From NCBI GenBank assembly GCA_025336685.1, contig GCA_025336685.1_4717.1: DNA of 64,000 nucleotides. One strand, written 5' to 3'. The notes under the pieces are model-generated. The model did no database searches. It saw nothing but the letters and a program-made list of their open reading frames with translations, and was not told where the DNA came from. Source of the stretch: Escherichia coli (GTDB taxonomy: Bacteria; Pseudomonadota; Gammaproteobacteria; Enterobacterales; Enterobacteriaceae). The position numbers and the translations under genes were made by a program. Positions 15,751 to 64,000 of this stretch are shown piece after piece. Position 1 is the stretch's first letter; each line of letters starts with the position of its first letter.

Positions 15751-15759
15751 GTAATATAG
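15751..15759 (-). promoter_or_regulatory. promoter-like motif GGNCTATATTACC (copy 1)
   Basis: Exact 9-mer CTATATTAC on minus strand with GG two bases upstream, about 125 nt upstream of the 15627 start; same motif recurs at 23736, 40045 and 53165. Confidence 0.35.
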
Positions 15760-23735: not shown

Positions 23736-23744
23736 CGTAATATA
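23736..23744 (-). promoter_or_regulatory. promoter-like motif GGNCTATATTACC (copy 2)
   Basis: Exact CTATATTAC on minus strand about 40 nt upstream of the HNH ATG, in the 75-nt gap after the 1069 aa ORF. Confidence 0.35.
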
Positions 23745-38928: not shown

Positions 38929-39486
38929 TTAAACTTCTTCGTTTTCTGAACCTAATGATTCAGCATCTGGATCGTCAACAGGAATTGTTGCGTCAAAATA
39001 CCGTTTCGTATGCGTGGTCGTATATCCTACACTATCTGTGATGGAAATCGTAAACGTGACTTCTCTCGCACGGATTAAGCGTAGTTTATTCATGAAGTTA
39101 CGGAACGGCATCGATCCCCGATTCAACTCCTTAATGACGTTTCCTCGAATACTGGAAATGTCTTTATTCGTTTTATCAGGATGTCGTTTCTTCACATCAC
39201 GCATATGTCGGGTAATATACGAATTGAGCTGATTTGCGCCGATCCCTCTCTCCGTATAAATCTGCAACAGGAACTCCGTAAGGAAATCCTGTCTACCCGT
39301 AGGCGTCCAGAAATTGTTACCGTGATTGTAGTTAGTCGCTCGTCCTCGATTACTTTGAGGATTTTCATCATCGTTTTCGTCACAACGCTTAAGCGGATTA
39401 ATGCGTGCTCGGAAAGAGACTTCATTATATTTATTTGTCATAATACACCAGTGTACTGACTGAGTGCGAAGGTTAGGAGTTCGCAA
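38929..39486 (-). CDS. hypothetical protein (185 aa)
   Basis: ORF track. Confidence 0.45.
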   Translation of the reverse strand: MRTPNLRTQSVHWCIMTNKYNEVSFRARINPLKRCDENDDENPQSNRGRATNYNHGNNFWTPTGRQDFLTEFLLQIYTERGIGANQLNSYITRHMRDVKKRHPDKTNKDISSIRGNVIKELNRGSMPFRNFMNKLRLIRAREVTFTISITDSVGYTTTHTKRYFDATIPVDDPDAESLGSENEEV

Positions 39487-40044: not shown

Positions 40045-40053
40045 GTAATATAG
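40045..40053 (-). promoter_or_regulatory. promoter-like motif GGNCTATATTACC (copy 3)
   Basis: Exact CTATATTAC on minus strand upstream of the 39953 start. Confidence 0.3.
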
Positions 40054-52476: not shown

Positions 52477-53133
52477 TTAGCTTGCAGCATCTTCATTTGT
52501 ATCAGGTTTGCTTCCCCCTAACAAACCGTCAAACAGACCTGTATGTTTCAGGTAGAAGATAGCGATAGCGCCCATCGCTGCTGCGCTCGTCGCCGTTAAC
52601 GCAACCCCAGCACGATACTGCCATTTACGGTCAGGCTTTTGATCAAGCGCCATACGACGCATGTATTCAGCCTCTGCTTCATTCCGATGAATTTCGGATT
52701 CGGCCAGACGGGCTAAGGTATCGCGGTCAAGGTTATCATAACGTACGTTCATGGAAGTTTCCTCTTGTTTGGAAGTTGATTGCTTAGTGGATTCTTGGTC
52801 AACAGTCGTTTCAGTTGGTTCAAACGGCTGGTTGTTCATTTTCTGATCTTTATTGGTCATGATAGACTCCTTCGATTTTTGAGACGAAATTGATTTAAAC
52901 CATCGTGGATGGCGGTATTCGGTTTTACATGTACAGTTAAGTTTCTCGTGCATGAAAGCGTAAAAACGTTTTGCACCTACACGTAAGGCTTTCAGCATTA
53001 TCCATCCACGAGCACTCAAACGGTGTAGCTGTTGCGGTATGTCGAGTTTCCTAGCCAAGCGAAAGTATCTCTCAATCACTTCGATAGGAAACCATTGTTG
53101 TTCCGCATCGGTGAGACTGAAAGTCTTATCCAT
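52477..53133 (-). CDS. protein with C-terminal TM helix (about 218 aa)
   Basis: ORF track start 53160 is GTG; first ATG at 53133 (MDKTFS...); C-terminal hydrophobic segment AGVALTATSAAAMGAIAIFYL. Confidence 0.45.
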   Translation of the reverse strand: MDKTFSLTDAEQQWFPIEVIERYFRLARKLDIPQQLHRLSARGWIMLKALRVGAKRFYAFMHEKLNCTCKTEYRHPRWFKSISSQKSKESIMTNKDQKMNNQPFEPTETTVDQESTKQSTSKQEETSMNVRYDNLDRDTLARLAESEIHRNEAEAEYMRRMALDQKPDRKWQYRAGVALTATSAAAMGAIAIFYLKHTGLFDGLLGGSKPDTNEDAAS

Positions 53134-53164
53134 GATTGAAATCTCGCTGGCTTGCTTCACCTAG

Positions 53165-53173
53165 GTAATATAG
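53165..53173 (-). promoter_or_regulatory. promoter-like motif GGNCTATATTACC (copy 4)
   Basis: Exact CTATATTAC on minus strand about 35 nt upstream of the 53133 ATG, in a divergent intergenic region. Confidence 0.3.
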
Positions 53174-53282
53174 CCGTGAAAAAAGTTGGATTAAGTTAAA
53201 TACCGCAACCTAACTAATTTTATAGGCCTACAGCCTAAACCAATCATCTTCGAAATCATCATCTACGAAACAGGAACCTATC

Positions 53283-56661: not shown

Positions 56662-57303
56662 CTAACGGCGTTTTGTACCGACCTTCCCATTTCGATGGTC
56701 ATCAAGAATACGCCATTCTTCGAACAGGAGTTCAGCTGCGAAATAACCTACGGCGATGCTGTCTATCGCATGCTCATCAAGATTCGCTAACACAACACCG
56801 TTTCTGGGTGTGATGTTCATGAGGTTCAACACTTTCTGGCGAACATCGTCCTTACCGACACGTGACGTCATGATCCCAACGGCGCGTTTTGCGCTTCGGT
56901 TATCAACCCCTAAGAAAGACACCGTAGGGTCAAAATCGATAACCGTTGTCTGAATCGCTGAAAACAGCTCGCTGAGCGCCATACCGCTTTGCTTGAAACG
57001 ACCGATAAACGGTGTTTCACAAGCGACCGCCTGCGGTTGGTACTCTTGCAATAACGACGTCAGCGAACGACGGTGTTCTTGGATACGTGCGGCACGGTTA
57101 CCGTATCCAAGAGCAATATCACCATCAGGATCATATCGGCGTGAGGCGTGCCATGTCCCCGCATAAAGCAGTTCAATATCTTCGACACGCACGTCCAAAC
57201 GCAGTAACGACGCACCGAGTGTATCGGTGCCGGGGTCGATTGCCAGAATATCGTAAGCGTATTCTGGTGGGATCATGGTGTTACAACAGCCTCTACCGAC
57301 CAC
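56662..57303 (-). CDS. RuvC-like Holliday junction resolvase
   Basis: ILAIDPGTDTLG (RuvC ILGIDPGSRVTG), ACETPF (AIEQVF), KRAVGIMTSRVGKDDVRQKV (KQTVVGIGSAEKSQVQHMV), DEHAIDSIAVG (DAADALAIA); probable start at the second Met. Confidence 0.7.
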   Translation of the reverse strand: MVGRGCCNTMIPPEYAYDILAIDPGTDTLGASLLRLDVRVEDIELLYAGTWHASRRYDPDGDIALGYGNRAARIQEHRRSLTSLLQEYQPQAVACETPFIGRFKQSGMALSELFSAIQTTVIDFDPTVSFLGVDNRSAKRAVGIMTSRVGKDDVRQKVLNLMNITPRNGVVLANLDEHAIDSIAVGYFAAELLFEEWRILDDHRNGKVGTKRR

Positions 57304-60677: not shown

Positions 60678-61766
60678 ATGAGCGATCTGGCAACAGACAA
60701 TCGCACAAAAGGGAGTCAGTTAGCTCCAGACAGCAACGTAAGCGTTTTCCGTATCTTTGCCTTGGGTACCGTTGCTGCCGACTTTTCCAATAAAAGTCTG
60801 GAGGAAGATCCTAACCAGGCGCTGGAGGTCTTTCTTGACGAGATGATGTCAGGTGCTGACGGGAAAGTTGAAGCGGCGGGAAGCGTGAAAGAAGTTAGTG
60901 CAACAGACGCTCAAGGGAACAGCTATACGGCAAAAGCGGCAACAACAACCAGCGTGCAGTGTTACTGGTTACCCTTTGGTAGTAATCGGATGACAGCGCC
61001 TAACTTGAGGAAAGGTCAGCGTGTGGTGGTCTGGCGTACTGCCGATGAAGAACAACTCTATTGGCAGCCCAAAGGAGGGGATAGTGAGCTGATGACCATG
61101 GAATCGGTTATCCTCACCGTCAGTGCACGTCCTAGCGCTAAGAAGGACCGTAAATCGATTTCAACGGAAGACTGCTATTACCTAATGGTTGATACCTTTC
61201 TTAAGAAAGCGGTTATCGGTACAAGCGCACAGCTTGGTGAAGTTACCCAAGTCTACATGGAACTTAATCTGGACGAGGGTTACTTACAGGTTGCGGACAG
61301 CGTCCATCAAAACCTACTATTGCTCCATTTTGTCGAGCATATGCTGCGATACCAAAACCAGGACGACAGCATTATCGACGTAACAAAAAAGAACATCACA
61401 TTCCAATGCGAGGATACGCTCAAAGCAATCGCTAAGAACGATATCCGAATGAAAGCAAAAAATATTTATACGGAATGTGAGAACTTTGAACGTACCAGCA
61501 AAACAGAAAGCGTTACGAGTCAGAATGTTTCTTTGAAATGCGATCGCTACACCGCGCAAGTATCAGGACAAACCATATTCAAATGTCCGAATACGGTATT
61601 CACCGGAGCCGTGAGTTTCACTGGTGAAGACGGAAACACGATGACATTGAACGGTAACTTCATACACGTCGCGGGATCTTGGCGTTCACCAAGCGGAACA
61701 AACGTATACACTCACGACCACGGTGGCGTTAAATCCGGTAGTAGTAGAACCGACCCGTTTCAATAA
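60678..61766 (+). CDS. hypothetical protein (362 aa)
   Basis: Lone plus-strand ORF followed by a strong bidirectional terminator. Confidence 0.5.
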   Translation: MSDLATDNRTKGSQLAPDSNVSVFRIFALGTVAADFSNKSLEEDPNQALEVFLDEMMSGADGKVEAAGSVKEVSATDAQGNSYTAKAATTTSVQCYWLPFGSNRMTAPNLRKGQRVVVWRTADEEQLYWQPKGGDSELMTMESVILTVSARPSAKKDRKSISTEDCYYLMVDTFLKKAVIGTSAQLGEVTQVYMELNLDEGYLQVADSVHQNLLLLHFVEHMLRYQNQDDSIIDVTKKNITFQCEDTLKAIAKNDIRMKAKNIYTECENFERTSKTESVTSQNVSLKCDRYTAQVSGQTIFKCPNTVFTGAVSFTGEDGNTMTLNGNFIHVAGSWRSPSGTNVYTHDHGGVKSGSSRTDPFQ

Positions 61767-61789: not shown

Positions 61790-61841
61790 CCTCCTTCCCC
61801 GGCCTTGGTGGCTAGGGAAGGAGGATTATAGTTTATTTATT
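61790..61841. terminator. bidirectional intrinsic terminator (CCTCCTTCCC / GGGAAGGAGG, loop CGGCCTTGGTGGCTA, then ATTATAGTTTATTTATT)
   Basis: Read directly; near-duplicate of the 14041..14090 element, including the loop and T-rich tail. Confidence 0.75.
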
Positions 61842-62277
61842 AACGCACTGCGTTCTGGATGATTTCTTTTCCGATCTTAACCAAAGCAGGTATCTGCACA
61901 GCGGTTGCGCCTCGATGACGAAACGCGGTCGTTAACGCGGTATCGATACTCACAGCACGTCCGTGGAGACGATCGAAGTAGACTTGCGTGATTGCAGCGG
62001 CGTAATCCTTTCGCTGTTTCTTGGTTTGGTTTAACAGCGCCGCACTATGACTAACGATGAAGTAAGCGATTAAGAAGAACGCCGCCGACCGCGAACCGGG
62101 TAGAAAACCTTGTCGCTTAGGAAGCATCTCACAATCGCGAACAGTATTATCATTCGCGAGCTCATCCATGTCAACACAGCATAATTTTGCATAGGTGTGG
62201 AGATAGTGGGTAAAAGCTGAATTTAACATGTTTCTTTCCTCGATTACAATGAGTTCAATGTATAGCTTAAACGTCAC
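61840..62277 (-). CDS. hypothetical protein (145 aa)
   Basis: ORF track. Confidence 0.45.
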   Translation of the reverse strand: MTFKLYIELIVIEERNMLNSAFTHYLHTYAKLCCVDMDELANDNTVRDCEMLPKRQGFLPGSRSAAFFLIAYFIVSHSAALLNQTKKQRKDYAAAITQVYFDRLHGRAVSIDTALTTAFRHRGATAVQIPALVKIGKEIIQNAVR

Positions 62278-62335
62278 AGAACGACGTGTAGCGGTTTGTT
62301 TTAATTTCTAAGGGGTTTCCTTATCTAAGATTGAA

Positions 62336-62698
62336 TTAAAGCGTTCTGAAGAGTTCTGTAGCGTTCTCGTCACGTAGACAGGCTTCGTTCAACAATTCAG
62401 CTAACAGCTTCGACCGAACTTCAACAAATGTCCTGAGGCGATGCTCCCATTCTAAACGGATGGTGTAAGTATTATCCAGGTTTTTGTAATCAACGACAGA
62501 TACCGAGCAGCGGGGTTCACGTTTGTTCACAGCACCCCAAACATCTTGAATGATCGCCTTACCTTTCTCAGTACATGTAAACGTTATAACGTAATGATTG
62601 TTCGATGCTTCAACACGAACATCAATAAATTCGTTTTGTAATGTCGAGACCTTGGTTAGACGCTCAATCGCGAGCGATAACCCAACACGTTGTTGCAT
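62336..62698 (-). CDS. small hypothetical protein, paralog family member 1 (120 aa)
   Basis: Shares motif VITFTCTEKGKAIIQDVW with the two upstream ORFs. Confidence 0.5.
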   Translation of the reverse strand: MQQRVGLSLAIERLTKVSTLQNEFIDVRVEASNNHYVITFTCTEKGKAIIQDVWGAVNKREPRCSVSVVDYKNLDNTYTIRLEWEHRLRTFVEVRSKLLAELLNEACLRDENATELFRTL

Positions 62699-62699
62699 A

Positions 62700-63125
62700 T
62701 CAAATCCCCTCTTTCAGAATCTCATTAAGGCTGTCAGTAATCCAGTCGAACTTCGTCTTAATCATGGCTGGGTTCAATCCGTATACTTCCCACACAAGCT
62801 GCGGTTTATGTGTTCCATCGTCCAAACAAAGCACATCGATTGAGAGCATCATACCGCCCGTCAATTTCATGTTCTCACAACTACGAAGATATGCGGATTC
62901 TAGCATTACTTTCCCTAACGCGGTGCAAGCAAACGTTAACCGGGAAGAATACAGGTACGATGAAGTTTTACAGTAGGTTGCTGATATCGGTTGAATATGT
63001 TTGCGGAGTTTGGCGTCTTCACGTAAGAGCAGTAACGTGCGATGTAAACGCGTATGCTCGGTAACCGATGGGCTATATTCACCGATACGCTCTTCGGCGA
63101 CTGATTCAGGCCATTTAATTTCCAT
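62700..63125 (-). CDS. small hypothetical protein, paralog family member 2 (141 aa)
   Basis: Motif RLTFACTALGKVMLESAYLRS; 1-nt gap to neighbours. Confidence 0.5.
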   Translation of the reverse strand: MEIKWPESVAEERIGEYSPSVTEHTRLHRTLLLLREDAKLRKHIQPISATYCKTSSYLYSSRLTFACTALGKVMLESAYLRSCENMKLTGGMMLSIDVLCLDDGTHKPQLVWEVYGLNPAMIKTKFDWITDSLNEILKEGI

Positions 63126-63126
63126 G

Positions 63127-63543
63127 TTATCTTCCTCGATTTTCTAGTTGAGACACAATACCATCAGCAACGTAATGCAACTGGACATTAAAATCCAACG
63201 ACGATACTGCGGAAATTGACCAGCAGGCATTTGAAGCCCAATACAACCCACCTACACCCAAAGAGACTTCCCACGTTAACTTCGTTATGACGTCTCTAGC
63301 TCGCTGTTCACTATATCGAAACGCGTTTTCCAACAATGTTTTTCCCGTTTGTGAACATAAAAAGCAAAGTTTCACATCTGTGCCGGTCTTTTCAAAATCA
63401 AACAATCGAAAATGGTCAACCAAAGAGGGGGTGGAGGCTAGGCATTGCAATGCGTCTTCCAATGCAAGATGGTCTAGCGTTTCTAAGTTTTTGCATGGCT
63501 GCTTTGGTGCGAGTGCGATTGATTTGTGGAATACAACATTCAT
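63127..63543 (-). CDS. small hypothetical protein, paralog family member 3 (138 aa)
   Basis: Motif KLCFLCSQTGKTLLENAFRYS. Confidence 0.5.
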   Translation of the reverse strand: MNVVFHKSIALAPKQPCKNLETLDHLALEDALQCLASTPSLVDHFRLFDFEKTGTDVKLCFLCSQTGKTLLENAFRYSEQRARDVITKLTWEVSLGVGGLYWASNACWSISAVSSLDFNVQLHYVADGIVSQLENRGR

Positions 63544-63567
63544 GATTAGTTCCTCGTAGTGTTAAGT

Positions 63568-63585
63568 GGGGACAGATGTGTCCCC
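63568..63585 (-). promoter_or_regulatory. intercistronic hairpin GGGGACA-GATG-TGTCCCC
   Basis: Perfect 7-bp inverted repeat between minus genes 63592..63978 and 63127..63543, just 5' of the downstream SD. Confidence 0.35.
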
Positions 63586-63591
63586 GGATAG

Positions 63592-63978
63592 TTAGATTAC
63601 ATCCCAAGCCGTGTTAGGTATGGGTTGATTACGATCGATGTAATACATCACGCTTTCTTTAAGCTTGGTTAACGCGTCAGCAACGATGTTCTCCACGGTT
63701 ATCACCTTTTCCATGTTGCCCATTGTATCCTGCCATGTAAACCAATCATTGATGTTATCGATGTATAGGGACTCATCGTCATCCGTCATGACCTGTATAT
63801 TTTCACGGCGATCGCGGGTTGTATACAACGGTGTTTGTACATTCGTTCTAACACGCGTCCAAAGCTTCTCTAGAAAGTTCGACGGTTGATTATTCGTAGC
63901 GATAATAAGCTCACTACGTACTGAATGTTCTCCTCGCTTTTCAATAGCAAATAAACCATCGTAAGTGATGTTCATCAA
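63592..63978 (-). CDS. hypothetical protein (128 aa)
   Basis: ORF track; TTG at 63978 or ATG at 63975 as start. Confidence 0.45.
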   Translation of the reverse strand: MMNITYDGLFAIEKRGEHSVRSELIIATNNQPSNFLEKLWTRVRTNVQTPLYTTRDRRENIQVMTDDDESLYIDNINDWFTWQDTMGNMEKVITVENIVADALTKLKESVMYYIDRNQPIPNTAWDVI

Positions 63979-64000
63979 TTTACGGAGGTCATCGTTGCTG

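Follow-up and report, generated by a model that had tools for sequence, protein, structure and literature searches.

The three adjacent small genes at positions 62336-63543 of the stretch analysed here (the window: all 64,000 nucleotides taken from contig GCA_025336685.1_4717.1 of the Escherichia coli assembly GCA_025336685.1), which we call A, B and C, are real, ancient and very distant tandem copies of a single small gene peculiar to Goslar-like chimalliviruses, and their array forms a hypervariable, recombining and copy-variable island in an almost invariant Goslar-type genome. The end of the window (61.8-64.0 kb) corresponds, at 91.7% DNA identity, to the start of the genome of Escherichia phage vB_EcoM_Goslar (MK327938, 11.2-12.5 kb), a nucleus-forming jumbo phage of the Chimalliviridae, in which the counterparts of the three genes (Goslar_00015-00017, QBO63808-QBO63810) are annotated as "hypothetical protein". 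The genes and the motif that they share are as follows.

62336-62698, minus strand: gene A, 120 amino acids (aa), orthologue of Goslar gp15, the last of the three paralogues to be transcribed
62700-63125, minus strand: gene B, 141 aa, orthologue of Goslar gp16
63127-63543, minus strand: gene C, 138 aa, orthologue of Goslar gp17, an accessory copy
62558-62581, minus strand: motif in A, F40-T-C-T-E-K-G-K47 (codons TTT ACA TGT ACT GAG AAA GGT AAG)
62910-62933, minus strand: motif in B, F65-A-C-T-A-L-G-K72 (codons TTT GCT TGC ACC GCG TTA GGG AAA)
63340-63363, minus strand: motif in C, F61-L-C-S-Q-T-G-K68 (codons TTT TTA TGT TCA CAA ACG GGA AAA)

The initial annotation had described three adjacent open reading frames (ORFs) of 120-141 aa with a common block, and the ORF list of the window bears this out, with exact coordinates for frames of 120, 141 and 138 aa, to which we add that all of them lie on the minus strand. 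The blocks quoted there (VITFTCTEKGKAII, RLTFACTALGKVML and KLCFLCSQTGKTLL) are all found in A, B and C, the one small deviation being an M in B where the proposed consensus allows L or I. The strict pattern F.C[TS]..GK is matched three times among the window's ORFs in all six frames, exclusively in A, B and C, against a chance expectation of about 0.003 matches given the composition of the window proteome. Outside the strict form the motif reads FTCTKKGV in Goslar gp15 and FVFSQTGK in Goslar gp17 (Cys to Phe), and among A-type orthologues the position of the motif lysine is occupied by K, V, M or L.

The raw similarity between pairs is weak. Smith-Waterman scores exceed those of 2988-2995 of 3000 shuffles (p 0.0015-0.0035 per pair) and pairwise BLASTP among the three proteins yields only short, weak matches (E 6e-4 to 6e-3), while in an all-against-all BLASTP comparison of the 62 window proteins the same matches (E 0.09-0.8) are on a par with many chance pairs, even if they form a closed triangle between adjacent genes that are aligned on the same block. 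A stronger test of alignment significance, by profile-profile comparison, was therefore needed. With orthologue-group profiles, hhalign aligned B with C at 91% probability (E 1e-6) over 109 columns, nearly their full length and with the motif of C placed on that of B, A with B at 61% (E 8e-5) and A with C at 34% (E 4e-4). A family alignment of 28 sequences is coherent from end to end, and in it the Phe, Cys and Gly of the motif, together with a Trp in strand beta4, are invariant. The significance of the shared block, on which the initial annotation had staked its claim, was thus put to the check and withstood it, with both the shuffles and the profile E-values (1e-6 to 4e-4) on its side.

The competing explanation, namely that a beta-strand-to-helix motif has arisen by chance in unrelated small genes, or that these are drifting ORFs with no function, can draw on the chance-like values of the window-wide BLASTP, on the modest A-C profile probability and on the behaviour of the "F-x-C-T" string in an exhaustive hidden Markov model search, in which it spuriously matched Ig-like repeat proteins. 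It is nevertheless largely refuted and we regard it as extremely improbable, given the extent of the B-C alignment and its probability, the restriction of the strict motif to three adjacent genes, the conservation of ORF lengths over dozens of alleles with a ratio of nonsynonymous to synonymous substitution rates (dN/dS) below 1, the observation of peptides from gp16 and gp17, and the structural model of A, which was built with neither B nor C sequences and shows the same topology as that of B, with the motif in the same place.

The AlphaFold2 model of B, built from the family alignment, has a mean predicted local distance difference test score (pLDDT) of 90.4 and a predicted template modelling score (pTM) of 0.85, with helices (H) and strands (E) in the order H19-41, E44-55, E58-67, H69-84, E91-100, E106-116 and H119-139; that of A, built from A-type sequences only, has a pLDDT of 92.0 and a pTM of 0.84, with H2-23, E24-32, E35-42, H44-60, E65-72, E78-85 and H89-119. 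According to DSSP the two share an identical alpha-beta-beta-alpha-beta-beta-alpha topology, so that A and B are predicted to be a compact two-layer alpha/beta domain (alpha1, beta1-beta2, alpha2, beta3-beta4, alpha3); C probably has the same fold, to judge from its full-length profile alignment to B.

In each model the motif lies at the junction of beta2 and alpha2: Phe and Cys occupy alternate positions where beta2 ends, Thr stands just before alpha2 in the N-cap position, and Gly falls in the first turn of that helix. The Phe and Cys side chains would point into the core, and the Thr or Ser would actually cap the helix. Because Cys is replaced by Phe, and Lys by Val, Met or Leu, in close orthologues, and because of its position at the beta2/alpha2 junction, the F-x-C-[TS]-x-x-G-K block serves as a structural hinge and is neither a catalytic nor a nucleotide-binding site, nor a P-loop.

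The family is an orphan of the Goslar lineage. A HMMER search with the family profile against 1.84 billion cluster representatives recovered about 8 true representatives, all of them Goslar-like; two further hits were rejected as repeat-summed false positives, one being an Ig-like repeat protein containing FSFTCTKAASG (P0038) and the other a tandem USP protease artefact (P0039). Searching 50,697 phage genomes by tblastn with A, B and C matched Goslar alone. The orthologues behind these comparisons were taken from Goslar (L001), from IMG/VR contigs (L002-L004) and from a collection of 5.8 billion proteins (35 matches, all Goslar-like), and members of the family were found on contigs of 236-245 kb in many isolate assemblies of E. 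coli, Salmonella and Shigella as well as in metagenomes.

In comparisons between the window, Goslar and contig L004, the genes flanking the array (the 213-aa gene at 56662-57303, a 271-aa protein, an SbcC-like gene, the tail-spike gene and gp14) are 95-99% identical, with dN/dS of 0.01-0.11. Within the array A is 79-81% identical (dN/dS 0.25-0.37), B is 94% identical to Goslar and 53% identical to the L004 allele, with synonymous divergence (dS) saturated in the divergent pair, and C is 51% identical to Goslar and 92% to L004. The gene immediately upstream, D, is 40% identical to Goslar gp18. Taken together, A to D range from 40 to 94% identity, with nonsynonymous divergence (dN) 10-100 times that of the flanking genes and saturated dS in the divergent pairs.

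In a sliding window, DNA identity changes sharply at the C/B boundary and within both A and B, and these breakpoints are those of allele replacements by recombination. The allele types reassort freely, B1 being found with C1 or C2, and C1 with B1 or B2. B falls into three allele classes (protein clusters P0020, P0002 and P0007) with conserved termini and a hypervariable middle, in which the motif is the most conserved stretch. In A and B alike the variability is concentrated in the four strands and in the alpha2-beta3 loop; conservation is seen in alpha1, in the motif and in the C-terminal half of helix alpha3.

Copy number varies as well. The order D-C-B-A is found in the window, in Goslar and in L007, and L004 has an extra 145-aa gene; A and B are present in every relative examined, and C is absent from L010/L011 and from L005. 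In the E. coli assembly GCA_047444535.1 (JBLGDT010000081.1, L012) a deletion has produced an in-frame D::C fusion of 111 aa (1405-1740, P0033) from the first ~42 residues of D and the last ~69 of C, with B and A intact downstream, an indication that this phage, at least, can do without intact D and C. The initial annotation had read the locus as one of local gene duplication and diversification, and this holds, as shown by the paralogy of the profiles, the common topology of A and B, the variable copy number and a mosaic evolution faster than that of the flanks.

Tandem paralogues are also found further upstream, so that the putative early gene cluster as a whole is a hot spot for the expansion of paralogues. 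A protein of 260-297 aa resembling Goslar gp21 occurs as one to three tandem paralogues per phage (L004 6452-8316; L010 6-2734; L007 735-2707), and the two L004 copies are 35% identical (E 3e-51). D is as hypervariable as A, B and C, and a full-length orthologue of 156 aa is present in L004. By eye, D shows a central strand-helix element and a C-terminal W-(16 aa)-VAD-x-L-x-x-LKE in register with C; as a fourth member of the family it was rejected, hhalign against the A, B and C profile being non-significant (E 0.15, 0.31). The neighbour of D in L004, L010 and L012, a gene of 145 aa, shows no BLASTP similarity to D, and its label "D2" was therefore dropped as well.

The neighbouring features on which the discussion of expression and function depends are listed here.

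63592-64000, minus strand: gene D, orthologue of Goslar gp18, next gene upstream of C, truncated by the end of the window
63568-63585, minus strand: GC-rich stem-loop with a 7 bp stem and a 4 nt loop, in the D-C intergenic spacer
61840-62229, minus strand: gp14-like gene, 129 aa, basic (isoelectric point, pI, 9.5), final gene of the same co-directional cluster
60678-61766, plus strand: tail-spike gene, homologue of Goslar gp13, 362 aa, convergent with the array

The junctions within the array are one-base spacers (TAA-C-ATG and TGA-T-ATG), and a Shine-Dalgarno-like GAGG sequence precedes the start of each of the three genes. One-base spacers combined with separate ribosome-binding sites of the GAGG type point to a single message and to coupled translation. 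The stem-loop between D and C (GGGGACA-GATG-TGTCCCC on the plus strand) has a predicted energy of -12.7 kcal/mol, lacks a U-tract and is not significant relative to shuffles (z -1.4). A hairpin is found at the same place between D and C in Goslar, L004 and L005, and the sequence of its stem differs each time; this suggests that an RNA structure is conserved here, which may serve in processing, stability or attenuation. Scanning of 61800-64000 revealed no terminator-like site, and the sigma-70-like matches in the same interval show no excess over the shuffle expectation.

At the downstream end, the variable gene cluster closes with the gp14-like gene. This gene is 95% identical to its counterparts in Goslar and L004 (dN/dS 0.10), matches no family and is not a paralogue of A, B or C; called mechanically, its ORF would extend over 61840-62277 from a GTG start (145 aa), and the Goslar annotation uses an internal ATG (window position 62229) that gives 129 aa. 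The orthologue of the 362-aa gene beyond it, Goslar gp13, is a baseplate tail spike modelled in three copies (bioRxiv 10.64898/2026.04.21.720040). Its GenBank label is only that of a hypothetical or putative structural protein.

The counterpart of the region in which a promoter for this cluster would be expected lies beyond the end of the window, and an early-type promoter, AT-rich and with a TATATTAC core and an upstream TTTCA, is seen in relatives. In L002 the co-directional cluster running from gp21 to gp14 is preceded by the motif TTTCACG[GA]CTATATTAC, ~140 bp upstream of its first gene, and L004 carries the same motif, further upstream of its expanded set of gp21-like paralogues. This sequence fits the promoter consensus tabulated for PhiKZ, 201phi2-1, OBP and N1M2 (PMC7058600), and the motif class of the PhiKZ type is that of early genes that depend on the injected virion RNA polymerase (vRNAP) and encode mostly hypothetical proteins (PMC11512511). 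By the promoter sequences of relatives, the array would be expressed early. Within the window an exact extended motif, TTTCACGGCTATATTAC, occurs on the minus strand at 53165-53181, just upstream of a 227-aa gene (52477-53160, minus strand). All five TATATTAC cores of the window are on the minus strand, three of them directly upstream of genes; the other four are the following.

15751-15758, minus strand: TATATTAC core
23737-23744, minus strand: TATATTAC core
39212-39219, minus strand: TATATTAC core
40045-40052, minus strand: TATATTAC core

As regards function, we tentatively propose, with confidence that falls a little short of even, that A, B and C are non-enzymatic, early-expressed binding modules at a host-interaction or anti-defence locus, acting in the host cytoplasm. 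The hypervariability and recombination of the array would be the arms-race signature of such a locus, under selection that is relaxed or diversifying. The suggestion of a host-interaction or anti-defence locus had already been made in the initial annotation and is plausible on circumstantial grounds: hypervariability, the early-type promoter of relatives, the lack of a conserved catalytic residue and a weak association of alleles with hosts all speak for it, and no defence or anti-defence homologue was found in PADLOC, Pfam, PHROGs, NCBIfam or PDB sequences. The last of the favourable points concerns allele 3 of B, every named record of which comes from Shigella flexneri, and the Goslar-type allele 1, which is recorded from E. 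coli and from various Salmonella serovars; as a hint of host-linked alleles it is a weak one.

Beyond this, we infer an early timing, a cytoplasmic site, a binding rather than a catalytic mechanism, and a role in anti-defence or host takeover. The three proteins would be made early from one polycistronic message, from a vRNAP promoter upstream of the gp21-like gene, and their translation would be coupled. As non-enzymatic protein-binding modules, they would act in the host cytoplasm, outside both the EPI vesicle and the phage nucleus, by binding host factors, of which components or sensors of host immunity that differ among strains of E. coli, Salmonella and Shigella would be the likeliest targets. 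The conserved helices alpha1 and alpha3 would maintain the fold and possibly contact a common partner, and the variable beta-sheet region and loops may bear the target-binding surface. Selection and recombination would then swap whole alleles between co-circulating phages, with copy number shifting from phage to phage.

Several observations weigh against this proposal. The early promoter motif is 2-4 kb upstream and is seen in relatives only, with GC hairpins that lack U-tracts in between; dN/dS is below 1 (0.09-0.37), demonstrable positive selection was not found, and the diversification looks like allele replacement combined with relaxed constraint; the association of alleles with hosts amounts to a handful of named records; and A, B and C show no homology to any characterised anti-defence protein in PADLOC, Pfam, PHROGs or NCBIfam. 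In addition, Goslar gp17 was detected at 12-29 copies per virion, which is unexpected for a purely cytoplasmic early protein.

This last observation leads to a different explanation, in which A, B and C are associated with the virion at low copy number or are injected, as minor structural or assembly proteins or as ejected ones (baseplate or tail accessories, or cargo of the EPI vesicle), and their variability reflects host-range adaptation at the envelope or in the first moments of infection. By tandem mass spectrometry coupled to liquid chromatography (LC-MS/MS) of CsCl-purified Goslar virions, gp17 was found with 4 peptides and 34.7% coverage at ~19 copies, and gp18 at ~4 copies per virion (Table S4, bioRxiv 10.64898/2026.04.21.720040), both of which suit such proteins, as does the position of the array next to a baseplate tail-spike gene and, in Goslar, within a few kb of the genes of the abundant virion proteins gp22 and gp23. 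Paralogue expansion is moreover typical of the Goslar virion families PF12699 and DUF7941, and A has a weak, non-significant PHROG match to a baseplate wedge family (E 0.0065).

The same Table S4, however, lists gp16 at ~0.6 copies per virion (2 peptides, a trace), which is the contaminant level of the nvRNAP subunits, themselves found at trace, and does not list gp15 (bioRxiv 10.64898/2026.04.21.720040). PhuZ is present there at ~170 copies, evidence of a substantial carry-over of cytoplasmic protein, so that detection at low copy number does not establish a role in the virion; the peptides of gp16, gp17 and gp18 do show that these proteins are made. Furthermore, gp15-17 are outside both the 28-protein cryo-EM virion model and the set of abundant unmodelled proteins (bioRxiv 10.64898/2026.04.21.720040), the tail-spike gene is on the opposite strand and convergent with the array, and the upstream promoter motif is of the early class and not of the late class that precedes structural genes. 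We consider a role in the virion unlikely.

A partner within the phage itself might also be supposed, A, B and C then being factors of inter-phage competition or compartment specificity that bind components of the nuclear shell, the import machinery, the EPI vesicle or the replication apparatus, and through which co-infecting Goslar-like phages exclude or discriminate against each other. It would fit this idea that the variation is found among very close phages with backbones 95-99% identical, that exchange of alleles by recombination requires frequent co-infection, that alpha1, alpha3 and the N-terminus are conserved, as would be expected of contact with a constant phage partner, and that the fold-level neighbours come from other nucleus-forming phages, where they too occur as tandem duplicates. 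That alleles of A, B and C reassort freely, on the other hand, argues against tight mutual co-evolution, and none of the protein families or structures searched showed similarity, the named chimallivirus nuclear, import and incompatibility factors not having been compared directly. Being pure inference, this explanation is in our opinion unlikely.

In nucleus-forming jumbo phages the DNA is concealed from restriction and CRISPR, and conflict with the host therefore shifts to proteins that lie open to it in the cytoplasm early in infection. Hosts do sense early proteins of this kind, as recent work on the sensing of JADA by Avs5 shows (PMC12931631). An island as variable as the array, in a genome that otherwise hardly changes, is thus a good candidate for a site of host conflict in E. 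coli, Salmonella and Shigella, and Goslar-like phages turn up in many assemblies of clinical and food isolates. If the proposed binding modules prove to be host-specific inhibitors, they would bear on the host range of jumbo phages used in therapy, and the anti-defence repertoire would gain a new orphan fold family. Expansions of small accessory genes within one lineage are familiar in large phages, and if A, B and C turn out to be minor virion proteins or dispensable, the array would be an ordinary case of these.

In comparisons with known protein families, searches of Pfam, PHROGs, NCBIfam, PADLOC and PDB sequences with A, B and C returned nothing significant. Acidic DNA-mimic anti-restriction proteins of the Ocr/ArdA type were ruled out by charge, A, B and C having pI values of 6.7, 6.4 and 6.05 and a net charge of -0.3 to -2.2 at pH 7. 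Identity with the JADA protein was likewise rejected, the Avs5 trigger being a conserved essential protein (Pa36 gp316, similar to phiKZ_124) and not a member of this family. Among known folds, those of the DCoH-like group (PCD/DCoH and the dimerisation domains of RNA polymerase alpha, Rpb11 and Rpb3) and Pcc1/KH-like domains can be named for comparison; the topology of A and B includes the beta-beta-alpha-beta-beta-alpha arrangement of DCoH-like folds, and neither sequence homology to them nor their family-specific functional residues were found in A, B or C.

The closest structural resemblance is to other jumbo-phage proteins. When the model of B was compared with BFVD by Foldseek, the best neighbours were uncharacterised jumbo-phage proteins, mostly from nucleus-forming phages: PhiPA3 gp356 (F8SJN1; E 2.6e-5, template modelling score, TM, 0.58), B3FJY3 (TM 0.61) and proteins of the Erwinia phages Simmy50, Stratton and Kwan (E 3.5e-5 to 9e-5), with 201phi2-1, VP4B and also RaK2 represented among the best matches; several of these targets are found again, with weaker scores, by the model of A. 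The annotation of PhiPA3 gp356 gives it as similar to PhiKZ gp290, and by BLAST it has weak relatives among RAY-like Erwinia phages; the family that includes these and RAY gp314 (E 2.6e-5 to 1e-4 and TM 0.5-0.6 against B) has proteins of similar size. Two members were located, as follows.

L013 2968-3465: RAY gp314
L006 17374-17868: PhiPA3 gp356

The gp356 family has an equivalent element of strand, N-cap, xxG and helix (PhiPA3 LVCDQSGLEKLM against FLCSQTGKTLLE), but it differs from A, B and C in the sequence W[SC]CE[SG]HP, which precedes the central strand in 4 of the 4 aligned members and which the three proteins lack. This sequence could be a metal or redox site. A gene of the gp356 type is tandemly duplicated in Erwinia phage AH06 (genes 330 and 331; L014 979-1980; 45% identity, E 1e-19). 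Alignments of A, B and C with the gp356 family by hhalign were not significant (E 0.69, 0.064 and 0.42), and homology was not accepted: the best value (E 0.064), obtained with a cross-genus profile of four sequences, covers the motif only, and a word-index search returned the query alone. The likeness is a resemblance at the level of the fold and a lead only.

A bolder extension of the proposed host-directed function would make A, B and C the Goslar branch of a chimallivirus-wide fold family that includes PhiPA3 gp356, PhiKZ gp290 and RAY gp314, composed of early cytoplasmic effectors that neutralise or decoy host protein-sensing immunity, with each paralogue or allele tuned to another sensor; such immunity could still act on a nucleus-forming phage through the early proteins that it exposes in the cytoplasm. 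We judge this very unlikely, though if true the array would map which host defences still matter to phages that shield their DNA, and a confirmed link to PhiPA3 gp356 and PhiKZ gp290 together with an anti-sensor function would raise the interest of the array.

Nearer to hand, other paralogue expansions of Goslar, namely the PF12699 inner-body proteins, the DUF7941 proteins and the gp21-like proteins, are also tandem or clustered, restricted to chimalliviruses and variable in copy number. They are larger than A, B and C, which are unrelated to them in sequence, and those of the PF12699 and DUF7941 families are abundant virion components, unlike A, B and C, which are outside the virion model. 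The direct orthologues are Goslar gp15-17, with the same order, orientation and neighbours (the tail spike gp13, gp14 and gp18), to which A is 80.8%, B 94% and C only 50.7% identical. A literature search for the Goslar accessions, gp290 and gp15-17 found no statement of paralogy or function, only the Table S4 rows of the 2026 Goslar virion preprint. Set against these genes, already deposited as hypothetical, what is newly shown here is the paralogy of A, B and C, their common fold and the structural nature of their motif, and that they make up a mosaic, hypervariable island of variable copy number.

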